Source: Eledone cirrhosa (taxonomy: Eukaryota). From it: a stretch of DNA of 64,000 bases. Under the pieces are notes generated by a model. That model saw nothing but the letters and a program-made list of their open reading frames with translations. It was not told the DNA's origin and did not search any database. Where the stretch lies: the NCBI GenBank assembly GCA_964016885.1, contig OZ024741.1, forward strand, positions 178,684,001 to 178,748,000, read 5' to 3'. Made by a program: the position numbers and the translations under genes. This document shows positions 5,763 to 55,326 of the stretch, in pieces; position 1 is the first letter of the stretch; every line of letters begins with the position of its first letter.

Positions 5763-5960
5763 GAAAAGAGTCAGGGCCCCGACAGTTGAGCTCCGGCCGT
5801 TTTGACAGCTAGATCCAAACGTTCAGATCTAGCTGTCGAAACGGCCGGAGCTCAGCCGTCGGGGCCCTGACTCTTTTCCTGTTACCCACTCTTCTACCCT
5901 AAGTATTGAGTACTCTGGTGCGTTATGGTCCACCTGGTATCTTACCACTTTCTTTGTTTT
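5763..5960 (+). mobile_element. Family D hairpin element, copy 1 (arms 5763-5815 / 5826-5878 plus ~80 nt tail)
   Basis: 53-bp inverted repeat; contains the 3' half of a hammerhead (gtc GAAA cggc..gccg TC ggggcc); homologous to 45451 and 55132. Confidence 0.85.
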
Positions 5961-6057
5961 ATATATATATGTGTGTGTGTGTGTGTGTGTGTGTGTGTGT
6001 GTGTGTGTGTGTGTGTGTGTGTGTGTGTGTGTATGTGTGTGTGTGTGTGTGTGTGTC

Positions 6058-7044
6058 TGATGGTAGCTAAGATGATTCTATAGGCGGTATGCCGGTTGAA
6101 CACTCTTACAGAGCAGAGTATGATAGAATAGAAAACGAAAAGTCAGTGATGCATCTGAACTGAATTTATTGTGTGTTACAATTGTTTCGGCTCGAGACGC
6201 GATCATTGTGTGGATCTGTCTGATTCTGGACCCGCAGGTTCGACGGACTTGTCTAACGATTTCGGAGCATATTCTCTCACAGGGGTATCTGGCCCTTTGG
6301 GCCAGTACCGTCAAAAACTTCATTCCCTTCGCGCGTCCTGTGATTGGCCGCTGGTTGTCGACGTCGTCATAATTCTGACCACAGGTACCAGTCCGCTGAC
6401 CTTCAGGGCGTTAGCTGTCCCATGTCTGCTACACTTCAATAAATTATTGCTGTGTTTGGCAGTTCACACACACACACACACACACACACACACACACACA
6501 CACACAGATGATGACAGTCGTACGCATACACGTCCGCTATACACACACATTTAAGAACAAATAAACATACGCATACATGCACTCAGAGAGACACGTACAC
6601 ACACAGACACATGCCCACATGCCTATATACATCAACATACTCACACGCATACATGTGCATACACATGCACACGCGTATATATACCCGTACACACAAGTAT
6701 ATACCAAACACAGCAGTAATGTTTTGAAGTGTAGCAGACATGGGACAGCTAACGCCCTGATGGTCAGTGGACTGGTACCTGTGGTCAGAATTATGATGAC
6801 GTCGACAACCAGCGGCCAATCACAGGACGCGCGAAGATGAAGTTTTTCACGGTACTGGCCCAGAGGGCCAGATACACCAGTAAGAGAATATGCTCCGAAA
6901 TCATTAGACGTGTCCGTCGAACCTGCGGGTCCAGAATCAGTCAATCCACACAATGATCGCGTCTCGAGCTGTCCGCCGGCGAAACAATTGTAACACACAA
7001 TAAATTGAGTTCAGATGCATCACTGATTTTTCGTTTTCTATTCT
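6058..7044. mobile_element. Older inverted pair (6125-6459 / 6704-7044) with a (CA)-rich centre and a ~67 nt tail on the left arm
   Basis: Arms are diverged reverse complements; decayed hammerhead at 6959-6996 (gcgt CT--CGA gctg..cggc GAAA caattg TA acac). Confidence 0.7.
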
Positions 7045-7077
7045 CTCTCTCTCTCTATATATATATATATATATATA

Positions 7078-8570
7078 TTGAATCAAGCACTCAACGTACT
7101 TTTTCCATATAGGTGTGACGGAGTATACATCGAATAAGAAAAAGCGAAGTAGTTTCAGATGTTAAAGTACTTTAATGATAATGCTGTGATACATATTTCA
7201 ATGACGACAGTGACCACATGGTTCGGTGCGCCCAGTGCCGTGACATCATCAGACAGCTTGTTACATAAGCAGGTTATGTTTCCGAGGCAATCCAAATTGA
7301 ATCGACATGGGAACGGACAAAGCGTGAGCTCTTGAGTTCTTCGCCCGTTCCCTTGTGAGTCCCAATTCACCACCACCGGTCTACGCAGGCGCAAGTCCGA
7401 AGGAAGTTGACCATCAACTACCGCAGAGTTCTACGGCAGTTCCCCTTCTCAACCAAACAATAACCCCATCCAGGCTTGTAATATGACACGGTTATAGTGT
7501 ACTGCTAGCCACCCTGTTAGTGGCAGTTGGCCGAAAGCTAGTGGGGTGGGAGAGTATGAGTATCAATAGGTCTCAATACTACCCCTAAATTAAGCATGGA
7601 CAGTAGAATTGACCATCAACCGCTAAGAGAATATATACTTATTTCTAGGTATTATGGTTTCACAGTGGAAATTATGAATAAGAGCTGGAAATTAACACTA
7701 AAAATTAAAAATCAAAAATCAAAAATTAAAAAAAATTACAAGTTAGAATCTAGATTGAAGTAAGTAAAAAAATATATGTACATATACTAACTAATAAATA
7801 GGGAGATGTGTAAGTTATAGTAAGAAGTTTTGAAATAGGGATCAATGTTACAGATATATTATCTACATATTGAATGATAGTACGGTACAGTAGAACGGAT
7901 GGTAAATTACAGTATGAAGCGTAGTAGTTAGGCGAACACATAGTTAATATCTCTATCACGTGGAACAAAACAAAAAATGTAAAATATAACATACCCCAAA
8001 AAATATACAAAAAAATACATAAAATACATAGATGCAAAATGAGATAGGAGATATATATGAGAAACATATACGAAGAAGGTAAACTGCATGGAAATGAGGG
8101 TATATGTGGTTAATATGATTGTCAATTTGTCCATATAAAGGTTTGTTATCTGGTGAAGTGAGGGGGCATCTGGTCAAGGTCTCTGTGCAGATGCAGTTTG
8201 CTGCAGGAAAATAGGGGTTTATCGTTGTTTTTATTTCCGCGTATTTATCCTGTCGAAAGTTAGTTTATAATTTTATGTCCGTCCAGTATCAGGGATTTCC
8301 AGTGTGTGTAGTCCATCCCCATGGTAAAGGGAATTTCCGAGGGTAGCTGATGGCTGGTTCATCTCTTCTCGACTATATCGGTTACACCATAGAGCGCTCA
8401 ACATTTTGGAGCTAAATTCTTAAGGTAAATATTGATGCAATTCAAGCACTCAACGTACTTTTTCCACATAGGAGTGACGGAGTATATATCAAATAAGAAA
8501 AATATATATAGAGTATAGTGTACTACTTTCGTTTGTTGACTCGCAGTAGAAATTTTACCTGGATCAACTT
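7078..8570. mobile_element. (TA)n-flanked element with ~60 bp direct repeats (7083-7143 / 8442-8500)
   Basis: tcaagcactcaacgtactttttcca..gtgacggagtata..tc.aataagaaaa occurs twice; decayed hammerhead-like motif 7207-7257 (-). Confidence 0.55.
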
Positions 8571-8696
8571 TATATATATATATATATATGTATGTATGTA
8601 TATATATATATATATGTATGTATATATGTGTGTGTATGTGTGTGTGTCTGTGCGTCTGTGTATGTATGTATTGATATATCAATATATTATATTATA

Positions 8697-52566: not shown

Positions 52567-52770
52567 AAGAAAAACCACAGACCCTCCATCTCAAATCTAC
52601 TTTTGAAAAGCAGAAGAACTGCGAAACCGGTAAAGGAACCAAATAATATATATATTTTTTTAAATAAGACTCCAGTTGCATTTCGATTTCATCTTCTTTT
52701 CTTTATACTTTCACTTGTATAGGACACCTCGGTTATTTTTCATTTTGTAAAAAAAAACTCACTTTCTAAT
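52567..52770 (+). mobile_element. Family E element with a U3-A8 hammerhead (52600-52635); partial copy at 54398-54514
   Basis: ctt TTGAAAA gcag-aagaa-ctgc GAAA ccgg TA aag. Confidence 0.72.
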
Positions 52771-53327
52771 ATATATATATGTATATATTATATATATATG
52801 TATATATGTATATATTATATATATATATATATTATATATATATATTATGTATTATATATACATACATATTATATATATATATATTATATATAAATATATA
52901 TATATATATATATATAATTTATATATATTTATATATATTATAATATATATATATAACATATATATATATATGTATTATATATATATATATATATTATATA
53001 TTATATATATATATATATATAATATATATATATAATATATATAATATATTATATATACATATTATATATATATATATATTATATATATATTATATATACA
53101 TATTATATATATATATATATATATTATATATATATATTATATATATATTATATATATATATTATATATATATTATATATATATTATATATATATATATAT
53201 TATATATATAATATATATATATATATATATATATATATATATATATATATATATATATATATATATATATATATATATATATATATATATATATATATAT
53301 ATAATATATATAATATATATATATATA

Positions 53328-53687
53328 TAAAATAAAGTTAAATAAAAGTCAAATGATTAAAATTTAGCTTCGTTTATTACTGCTATATATATTTCAGTGA
53401 CAGCCATCTTAGGCTGTGACCTCTTCAGGCAGTTTGAATTAGTATGGTATAGACATAGTATGGTATATACCATACTAATTCAAACTGCCTGAAGAGGTCA
53501 CAGCCTAAGATGGCTGTCACTGAAATATATATAGCAGTAATAAACGAAGCTAAATTTTAATCATTTAACTTTTATTTAACTTTATTTTACACTAATCCGG
53601 AGTAACCAAACCAACCTGCGCACTTCGTCGAGTGCTCCAGCCTGCATACTAAGGTGTTGGCATACAACCAACATAAACTCAAAATCT
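53328..53687. mobile_element. Fold-back element (124-bp arms 53328-53451 / 53466-53589; ~97 nt tail) in (TA)n
   Basis: Near-perfect inverted repeat with a hammerhead in each arm. Confidence 0.92.
53484..53538 (+). ncRNA. Canonical type I hammerhead; mirror at 53379-53433 (-)
   Basis: actgc CTGAAGA ggt-c-acagcc-taagat-ggctgt-c-act GAAA tatata TA gcagt. Confidence 0.9.
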
Positions 53688-55131
53688 ATATATATATATA
53701 TATATTATATATATATATAATATATATATATATATTATATATATATTATATATATAATATATATATATTATATATATATATTATATATATATATTATATA
53801 TATATATTATATATATATATTATATATATATTATATATATATTATATATATATATTATATATATATATTTTATATATATATATATATATATATATATATA
53901 TATATATATATATTATATATATATTATATATATATTATATATATATTATATATATATATATTATATATATATATATTATATATATATATATTATATATAT
54001 ATATATTATATATATATTTATTATATATATATTATATATATATTATATATATATATATTATATATATATTATATATATATTGTATATATATATATATATT
54101 GTATATATTATATATATATATATATATATTATATATATATATATATTATATATATATATATTATATATTATACATATATAATATATATATATATTATATA
54201 TATATATTATATATATATATATTATCTATATATATATATATTATATATATATATATTATATATATATATATTATCTATATATATATATATTATATATATA
54301 TATATATTATCTATATATATATTATATATATATATATTATATATATATATTTATATTATATATATATTATATATATATTATATATATATATATTATATTT
54401 TTTTAAATAAGACTGCAGTTGTATTTTCGATTTCACCTTCTTTTCTTTATACTTTCACTCGTGTAGGACACCTCGGTTATTTTTCATTTTGTAAAAAAAA
54501 ACCCACTTTCTAATATATATATATATATTATATATGTATATATGTATATATTATATATATATATATTATATATATATATTATATATTATATATACATACA
54601 TATTATATATATATTATATATAAATATATATATATATATATAATTTATATATATTTATATATATTATAATATATATATATATAATATATATATATATATA
54701 TGTATTATATATATATATATTATATATGTTATATATATATATATATATATATATATATAATATATATATATGTATTATATATATATATATTATATATGTT
54801 ATATATATATATATATATATATATATATATATATATATATATAAATATATTATATATATATTATATATATATATTATATATATATTATATATATATATTA
54901 TATATATATTATATATATATATTATATATATATTATATATATATTATATATATATATATATATATATTATATATATAATATATATATATATATTATATAT
55001 ATAATATATATATATATATATATTATATATATATATTATATATATATATTATATATATTATATATATATATTATATATATATATTATATATATATATTAT
55101 ATATATATTATATATATAATATATATATATA

Positions 55132-55326
55132 TAACGAAGGAAATGTGGTAAGGAACCAGCTGGACCATAACGCACCAAAGTACTCAATACTTGGGGTAGT
55201 AGAGTGGGTAATAGGAACCAGTAAGACCCCGACGGCTGAGCTCAAGCCGTTTCGACGGCTAATTCTGGACTGAATTAGCCGTCGAGACGGCTTGAGCTCA
55301 GCCGTCCGTGTCTTACTGGTTCCTAT
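55132..55326 (-). mobile_element. Family D hairpin element, copy 3 (arms 55211-55265 / 55272-55326; tail on the left)
   Basis: Reverse-oriented homolog of 45451-45651; (TA)n on both sides. Confidence 0.88.

Follow-up and report, generated by a model that had tools for sequence, protein, structure and literature searches.

Half-hammerhead palindromes of Eledone cirrhosa are head-to-head stubs of a Penelope-like retroelement, probably joined from cDNAs that ran off a capped mRNA

How does half a ribozyme come to lie mirrored upon itself at three places within 64 kb of the Eledone cirrhosa genome? In this stretch (the window: the whole of the DNA analysed, from contig OZ024741.1), three palindromes, whose arms are near-perfect mirror images, each carry the 3' strand of a hammerhead stem II, GAAA, stem III, TC and the 3' strand of stem I, plus a tail of ~80 nt. 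An earlier note, made from the sequence of the window, had described the palindromes, a unit consisting of the 3' half of a hammerhead, and arms that agree within each copy, and all of this has held up. It had also taken gacggctaattc for the 5' stem II strand of the ribozyme, which is only a mirror image, and had maintained that the copies always fold back exactly at stem II, neither word of which survives. CUGANGA is absent next to the three window copies, and the 5' strand of the core is not present in the stubs.

Numbering the element from the ribozyme cut site (0, with negative positions before it), copy 1 comprises an inverted tail-less arm (5763..5820, minus strand, element +19 to -40), a sense arm (5821..5879, plus strand, -40 to +19, with the stem II 3' strand, GAAA at 5838-5841, stem III, a cut after C5860 and the stem I 3' strand) and a tail (5880..5955, plus strand) lying between the inner and outer ends and followed by (TA)n/(TG)n. 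It belongs to an older subfamily, for which parents are known, and its arms (5763-5815/5826-5878) pair at 50 of 53 positions. Copy 2, paired at 54 of 55 positions (45451-45505/45519-45573), is preceded and followed by (TA)n and has an inverted tail-less arm (45454..45506, minus strand, +17 to about -37), a junction insert (45507..45518, plus strand) in which a re-copy of -33 to -24 can be read directly, a sense arm (45519..45570, plus strand, -35 to +17, GAAA at 45531-45534, cut after C45553) and a tail (45571..45652, plus strand). Copy 3 lies on the minus strand: its tail (55134..55213, minus strand), inside (TA)n, adjoins a sense arm (55214..55271, minus strand, -41 to +17, cut site C55231) whose first letter is the A of an initiator-like TCAGT, and the inverted tail-less arm (55272..55324, plus strand, -35 to +17) follows, with 4 junction nucleotides assignable to either arm and 52 of 55 positions paired (55211-55265/55272-55326). 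Letters peculiar to one copy are common to both of its arms, and this concordance extends beyond the window: 85 of 92 head-to-head pairs differ at no more than one of 11 diagnostic letters, against 30% when shuffled. A repeat search of the window was dominated by (TA)n.

Each of the three palindromes is a short head-to-head stub of a Penelope-like retroelement (PLE) with Hydra-clade motifs. The tail occurs in at least 37,732 copies in the genome, and a narrower pattern joining tail to ORF matches 379 times. The parent is a tandem unit of 3542-3543 bp with an intact 719-aa ORF starting at +190; unit lengths are 3057 bp at locus L182 and 3542 bp at L235, for a clade whose units are "generally" under 3 kb, and L219-L222 form a tandem of four units. 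The ORF has the reverse transcriptase motif YRDD at 348 followed by a C-terminal GIY-YIG domain with VIY..YIG at 591, DKT at 117 in place of DKG, a CxCx5C linker (CNCPDRSIC) at 572 with one C within the GIY-YIG core, and RWR at 37 where the clade has an N-terminal RWK; CCHH is absent, and CNLC (CxxC) at 670 and CKH (CxH) at 698 lie near the end. Searches of Pfam and PDB with the ORF gave no match, and in the Atlas clusters at 0.96-0.97, RVT_1 is found in 77% of members or GIY-YIG in 31-50%. Copies insert into (TA)n, and their outer ends fall at two fixed positions, +17/19 and about +99, each of them at a TA step. A partial tandem, an inverted 5'-truncated copy and a tail at one end are all present in L182, although the tail is of ~80 nt, not 30-40. 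Judged by these motifs and by the Atlas look-alikes, on which the clade assignment rests, the element is a Hydra-type PLE.

The hammerhead of the long parent copies is, as their aligned letters indicate, a real one of type I, with a core that is mostly the U3-A8 variant (UUGANAA). The earlier note expected a parent core upstream, and long copies do read acccc-YTGANAA-g(c/t)tcggctatt ~30 nt further upstream, but CTGANGA joined to the mirror arm has 0 matches, and CTGANGAGACGGCTAATTC likewise has 0 genome-wide. In 25 hand-picked related copies, 87.5% of cells are paired, against 24-44% when slid, and stem II shows double changes; the lowest-energy fold is the three-way junction in 2 of 4 parents, with z not significant. 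Stem III has 5 pairs and the long stem II a 30-nt loop. The 3-8 pair is U-A in 14 of 23 copies, C-G in 4, U-G in 3 and unpaired in 2, and the genome holds 2,046 matches to YUGANAA against 17 to CUGANGA. One large subfamily has C3-A8, without a 3-8 pair, and has spread as well (13 of 30 loci). Rfam reported no hammerhead in the window or in six loci, its microRNA-like matches there all being sub-threshold and falling on hairpins and simple repeats; a literature search by term for the U3-A8 variant found none, and the available part of PMC3088659 does not mention it. Joins at the cut site hint indirectly that self-cleavage after C17 may take place: template jumps restart at 0..-2 in 4 loci, all three segments of L269 end at 0, and in 4 loci a segment ending at exactly -1 is joined to one that starts near -41. 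The cleavage in trans that the earlier note envisaged has modest support at the 5' end of the element mRNA, but the palindromes are not its setting.

Junctions do pile up in the stem II region, as the earlier note had it, but they are neither exact nor universal there. Of the 96 arms anchored by a tail, 52 have their end at -48..-33, the interval from -59 to -129 contains no end, 10 continue past -130 and 27 stop on the downstream side of -25. Of 73 inverted arms, 64 have their end at -48..-25, and inverted arms of 0.1-4 kb also occur. The clustering is real, but the 73 two-armed copies have 67 different junctions, 29 of the 73 with 0-1 nt of overlap, and the three window copies differ among themselves. 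Of 59 clean pairs, 29 have the longer arm on the tail-less side (by at least 15 nt in 11) and 17 on the tail side, with 13 equal; in the long pairs L182, L184, L187 and L190 the tail-less arm may exceed the tail arm by kilobases. Seven of 92 pairs differ at two or more diagnostic letters, some having arms from different subfamilies (L015). In contigs of a public run, which may be the assembly's own sample, depth drops by a factor of 13 across -44, and there are loose (TA)n ends at +19 and +99. Two possible causes of the stop were rejected: a splice acceptor at TTTAG, because an upstream exon does not follow and the A is where jumps restart, and length-limited synthesis, because cDNAs of ~60 and 140 nt end at one place.

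The stop near -41 behaves as the 5' end of an RNA would, to judge from where jumps restart and from the letters around it. Of 69 loci with tail-to-ORF read-through, 17 contain direct template jumps, for which no palindrome is needed; 13 restart at -38..-45 and 4 at 0..-2. Among the first 100 copies in a set of 3,903 matches, 88 have a G just before -41; a -39 control, which carries a partner bias of its own, gives 25 of 100 (Fisher p 3e-20). About half of the extra Gs (23 of 52) could stem from the partner arm; in long copies the same position is G in just 1 of 89. The extra G at full-length L1 5' junctions has been ascribed to the cap, in the part of PMC11702581 available. Six copies have the extra G on both arms, with 0-5 nt between, a double G also compatible with fold-back at the cap, and in L276, L292 and L301 a tail-less arm has it while the tail arm is short. 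Tail-less ends also terminate long sense copies and jump products. The initiator-like TTAGT is conserved across 25 parents and the surrounding loop diverges; the stop sits on the 3' side of an extended hairpin, and no RGACGTGY-type downstream element is read at +28 from -41. The Penelope of D. virilis has an internal promoter within its pLTR (PMC2377424). TTT precedes the A in 28 of 85 short arms, many arms thus appearing to reach -44/-45, and a few reach -55 to -58, so that A-tailing or other start sites are needed. Later deletion between the two AGCCGTCG repeats can account for some short tail arms (L040, L117).

We propose, with a probability of roughly 0.7, that each stub is two cDNAs that ran off the capped 5' end of the element mRNA and were then joined. 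We infer that transcription starts at the A at -41 of TTAGT/TCAGT, internal to stem II; the mRNA 5' end would carry only the half of the ribozyme made of GAAA, stem III and the cut site, so that the UUGANAA half would never be on that end. At a (TA)n target, the element protein would nick the two strands and prime synthesis at two internal sites, which lie as close as 60 and 140 nt to the cap. According to the available excerpts of PMC11167929, a Penelope-like protein nicks and extends both strands in vitro, starting at two internal sites that bound the tail and requiring RNA ~55-60 nt beyond; in the Eledone cirrhosa element, jump donors with an end between +103 and +159 are absent (p about 0.02). 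Each cDNA would halt at the cap, adding a C (read as G) and sometimes A-tailing; the ends would lose 0-10 nt and then be end-joined. Less often, the enzyme would jump to the 3' end of another RNA and continue, giving partial tandems and long copies. Two cDNAs are favoured because the tail-less arm is often the longer and sometimes belongs to another subfamily.

The 92% concordance of the arms is also compatible with one template, and an alternative in which a single cDNA, begun at the tail end, extends to the cap, folds back and copies itself, the endonuclease cutting the hairpin at the inner TA and later deletions making the arms unequal, would account for the 85 of 92 matching pairs, the 0-1 nt overlap at 29 of 73 junctions and the templated re-copy at the junction of copy 2. 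R2 cDNAs do snap back, often after full-length synthesis (in the excerpts of PMC11371274), and the tail has been ascribed to endonuclease resolution (likewise in PMC8557442). We nevertheless consider this alternative improbable: it fits poorly with tail-less arms that are longer in 29 of 59 pairs, by at least 15 nt in 11 and by kilobases in long pairs, with their extra G opposite short tail arms, with arms of different subfamilies, and with tail-less ends on long sense copies and jump products. The position of the stop on the 3' side of the hairpin and the spread of ends across ~15 nt would suit a nuclease cut, or a roadblock to reverse transcription (the long stem II hairpin or a bound protein), in place of a cap; an untemplated G directly before -41, conserved initiator-like letters, and arms that once past -60 continue beyond -130 with none between make this quite unlikely.

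The earlier note offered two origins of its own. A mobile, non-autonomous palindromic unit of ~200 nt would explain why stubs far outnumber ORF-bearing copies (37,732 tails against 379 matches to the narrower pattern) and why, among 30 loci of the older subfamily, 7 share a junction. However, no fixed centre is inherited, 67 different junctions being present in 73 copies and nearly all differing also within one young subfamily; the extra A of the recurrent junction is on either the tail arm or the tail-less arm (L151, L160 vs L159, L179), and stubs lack the sequence past +100 that jump donors keep, all of which leaves such a unit very unlikely. Fold-back of the cDNA on the ribozyme's own stem II as primer accords with the clustering of junctions in that region, and L094 is compatible with a fold at the upper hairpin, but arms end ~25-40 nt short of the 5' strand, and a mirror arm followed by the natural 5' strand, the natural loop II and a sense arm, the product that it predicts, was never found, none of the 4 genome-wide matches to that pattern being genuine; in its strict form it is therefore refuted, and in any form we give it almost no credence. 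The same negligible weight goes to self-priming on an antisense transcript, as proposed for rotifer Penelope palindromes, which is the published reading of an identical head-to-head arrangement (PMC3846280, as excerpted); here it is sense RNA whose 5' ends are marked by the extra G and by the jump junctions, at the putative start and where the ribozyme cuts.

The origin of tandem and head-to-head repeats in PLEs, and the role of the hammerhead, are stated as open questions in the available parts of PMC8557442 and PMC11167929. Inverted tail-less copies are already known; neither a stop defined by the cap nor traces of ribozyme cutting in a genome turned up in the literature searched. At single-base resolution, the genomic copies of this family are evidence for a capped sense template, for a strong stop, for template jumps and for in vivo cutting at the ribozyme site, and they name exact positions (-41, 0, +19, +99 and about +160) for an in vitro assay and CAGE. 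More tentatively, and with doubt somewhat outweighing belief, PLE transposition might begin much as in retroviruses, with strong-stop synthesis at the mRNA cap, on the two target strands at once. The promoter would lie within the hammerhead so that the mRNA starts with the substrate half alone. This mRNA would keep its cap and stay translatable until it is cut by the catalytic half, supplied by its own far end or by another RNA; transfers that failed would have left the inverted stubs, and jumps that succeeded the tandems. If so, cap, cut and jump are recorded tens of thousands of times in this genome. Penelope-like elements are the sister group of telomerase.

In retroviruses and LTR elements, minus-strand strong-stop DNA is primed near the RNA 5' end, runs off at the cap and is transferred to the RNA 3' end. 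The Eledone cirrhosa element probably works like this without being a member of that class: its primer would be nicked target DNA and not a tRNA, there is no integrase or true LTR, and most events end as joined stubs. Retrozymes and MITEs are likewise short, numerous, non-coding and hammerhead-bearing or palindromic, whereas these stubs would be dead ends that an autonomous element makes anew each time it inserts. With the Hydra-clade PLEs, as excerpted from Craig et al. 2021 (PMC8557442), the element shares a single ORF, a C-terminal GIY-YIG-type domain, DKT, CxCx5C, CxxC and CxH without CCHH, (TA)n targets, a hammerhead in the terminal repeat, an inverted 5'-truncated copy and a tail on one end; it differs in its unit of 3.06-3.54 kb (generally <3 kb in the clade), RWR for RWK, a tail of ~80 nt instead of 30-40, a mostly U3-A8 core, and tens of thousands of 130-200-nt stubs with a common stop. 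PAc, a Poseidon element of the green anole (Frangieh et al. 2024, PMC11167929, in the parts available), is alike in its two internal reverse transcription starts bounding the tail, close behind a hammerhead at the repeat-ORF junction, in its AT-rich targets and in extending both strands in vitro. Ribozyme cutting is dispensable for PAc in vitro, and here the C3-A8 mismatch subfamily also spread; in contrast to Eledone cirrhosa, where jump junctions lie at the cut site, those parts report no RNA ends there, place no start within the ribozyme and leave inverted copies unexplained. The PLE hammerheads of Cervera and De la Pena 2014 (PMC4209133) are likewise of type I in a terminal repeat, with a palindromic loop III, opposite-strand pairs and a U3-A8 core variant, seen in Schistosoma Cercyon; ours differ in a stem III of 5 pairs and a long stem II with a 30-nt loop, and tandems here can come from capped-end jumps, not only from circles.

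The three head-to-head palindromic stubs that the earlier note had placed at about 5763, 45451 and 55132 are present; their arms measure 52-55 bp and carry 1-3 mismatches, and no fourth copy was found in the window by BLAST. Numbered on the element, a Penelope-like retroelement, from its predicted hammerhead cut site (the first G of GGGGTC counts as 0 and the G of GAAA as -23), the junctions join -40 to -40, about -37 to -35 via a 12-nt insert, and -41 to -35, respectively. Exact matches to a 29-nt tail motif number 37,732 in the 3.0 Gb genome, which is rich in (TA)n, and the motif's reversed control has none. 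We consider the feature real and its class known, and we replace the mechanism proposed for it: with a probability of about 0.72, cDNAs from both target strands would run to the mRNA cap near -41 and then be joined.

Arm mapping covered 96 copies out of the first 100 tail matches listed for chromosome C1. The inner end of the arm carrying the tail lies at -48 to -33 in 52/96 copies; 5 such arms end at -32 to -25, 27 end downstream of -25 and 2 at -57/-58, none ends between -59 and -129, and 10 extend beyond -130. With these 10 long arms left aside, 73 copies were assigned an adjacent inverted arm, which ends at -48 to -25 in 64; the script errs on a few copies (it produced overlap artefacts in L060, L125 and L145 and missed arms in L055, L132 and L141). 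At their outer side the arms have constant boundaries, +17/19 or about +99, and both of these meet (TA)n at a TA step. Contigs from a public run, possibly of the assembly's own sample, show this profile again, with depth dropping across -44 (2.4 million to 0.18 million) and loose (TA)n ends at +19 and +99. The earlier note had the family folding back exactly at one point, the ribozyme hairpin serving as primer in one of its two readings; the 73 two-armed copies show 67 junction types, which argues that junctions were formed anew. Snap-back on the natural stem II predicts that its 5' strand and loop are retained, and the corresponding pattern has 4 matches genome-wide, none genuine, with none continuing into the natural loop and sense arm. 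The perfect stem II read in the copies is the mirror image pairing with its own source, not the natural stem.

In the long copies, the sequence upstream reads acccc-YTGANAA-g(c/t)tcggctatt, followed by a 30-nt loop and the 3' strand of stem II. The canonical CUGANGA core occurs in 17 matches, and the YTGANAA pattern of the long copies has 2,046 genome-wide. The register is set by core position 7, at which all four bases (G, T, A, C) occur; U3-G8 forms are found in an older subfamily. The three stems are 87.5% paired in 25 hand-picked parents, whose relatedness inflates the shuffle control, versus 24-44% in slid controls, and both stem II and the 3-8 pair show double changes. A U3-A8 core is also a published variant in a Penelope-like element (PMC4209133), so the hammerhead is real. 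C3-G8, U3-G8, U3-A8 and C3-A8 are all present in the family; in a large subfamily (L061, L067, L068, L078, L081, L084-L090 and others) C3 faces A8, breaking the pair. The palindromic loop III hexamer GAGCTC, kept across subfamilies in all aligned parents (alignment A2), could pair two RNAs, suiting a dimeric enzyme. Judged from tandem copies, the unit measures 3542-3543 bp and contains an intact ORF of 719 aa beginning at +190; four near-identical units (L219-L222, C1:91476608-91487254) include at least one intact ORF, and a second four-unit array lies at C1:437200356-437210968. The ORF has DKT, CxCx5C, CxxC and CxH and lacks CCHH, matching the Hydra clade marks given in PMC8557442; Pfam and PDB searches with it gave no match.

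The stop near -41 is, judging from the sequences, probably an RNA 5' end. From 379 matches we surveyed 69 loci whose tail reads on into the ORF; 23 direct junctions were listed, and once a match to a simple repeat, two internal rearrangements and two rows shared by overlapping loci had been set aside, 17 loci with template jumps remained; these jumps occur without any palindrome. Copying restarts at -38 to -45 in 13 of these (in L242 at -41/-42) and at 0 to -2 in four; donor ends range from +160 to +917, and the stretch from +103 to +159 holds none. Across 89 long copies, the base just ahead of -41 is T 77 times, C 11 times and G once. Copies with a purine there nevertheless have mostly G: among the first 100 of 3,903 matches, a count by eye gives 88 with G, against 25/100 of 899 matches at the control position -39 (also by eye; p 3e-20). 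Of 52 inspected G's, at loci 20 of which were picked for having G, the partner arm could supply 23, and the other 29 could not come from it; six copies have G on both arms. The A at -41 stands within TTAGT/TCAGT, conserved while the surrounding loop diverges, a motif that resembles the insect initiator consensus. A comparable extra G in L1 has been interpreted as a copied cap (PMC11702581), and Penelope of D. virilis has an internal promoter in its terminal repeat (PMC2377424). TTT before the A in 28/85 short arms counts against a single start there; T-runs of at least 12 in L011, L057 and L091 suggest added A's, other start sites being a possible alternative.

The hammerhead seems to cut in vivo, as suggested by the four jumps at 0 to -2 and by five loci, a hint at that number, in which an upstream piece is joined to a start near -41. 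This piece ends exactly at -1 in four and at about +4 in one; in L306 it is a long natural repeat, and in the other four it itself begins at -37 to -41. Those four would match the 41-nt 5' product expected from a capped RNA cut without its own core, in trans or by a core from the RNA's far end. The C3-A8 mismatch subfamily has spread (13/30 loci), so cutting may be dispensable.

Head-to-head palindromes have been explained by self-priming on antisense RNA (PMC3846280). Among 59 pairs whose overlap or insert does not exceed 7 nt (14 pairs excluded), 29 have a longer tail-less arm, 17 a longer tail arm and 13 arms of equal length (29 versus 17, p 0.10), and in long pairs either arm can exceed the other by kilobases. 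Because a self-copying cDNA cannot yield a copy longer than itself, the longer tail-less arms point to two cDNAs. Arms differ at no more than one of 11 diagnostic letters in 85/92 pairs, a set that includes loci picked by similarity, and at least two letters differ in 7, L015 clearly across subfamilies. Every segment of L269 and L262 ends at the cut site, and L262 and L207/L208 each carry one jump junction twice within a single insertion, patterns that hint at repeated copying of one short RNA. The anole enzyme, starting at two internal sites, extends both target strands and requires downstream RNA (PMC11167929); in a single-copy transcript this RNA would follow only the tail's 5' copy, and priming would then be forced near the cap.

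The window holds other repeats. A long inverted repeat at 95-3066 (arms 526-1521/1637-2632 and 95-564/2597-3066, 96-98%) probably represents a different Penelope-like family inserted head-to-head; at 1253-1663 it matches the element's protein at its endonuclease end (37%). At 39652-39965, two opposed fragments of a related protein (40-44% identity), from its thumb and its endonuclease end, form another head-to-head junction. A separate near-perfect palindrome in (TA)n at about 53330-53590 retains a CTGAAGA core-like motif in its arms, and a 193-nt inverted repeat (25750-26251, 96%) lies between (TA)n runs around a (CA)n(TA)n spacer. At 58780-58961 and 61961-62142 lie two copies, in opposed orientation and 95% alike, of a 180-nt repeat, conceivably SINE-like, that also occurs beside several loci. 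Broken LINE-like ORFs run along the minus strand at 14369-16544 (15365-15880 matches Exo_endo_phos, E 9e-10). The sole CTGANGA..GAAA match of a loose hammerhead descriptor, at 4386-4460, may be chance.

Literature searches of main texts, spanning few subscription journals, turned up no description of a cap-defined strong stop in Penelope-like elements or of a start site splitting a hammerhead. The family makes an open mechanistic question testable at single-base precision, within a class for which inverted tail-less 5' copies, palindromic junctions, hammerheads and the U3-A8 core are already known (PMC8557442, PMC3846280 and PMC4209133).
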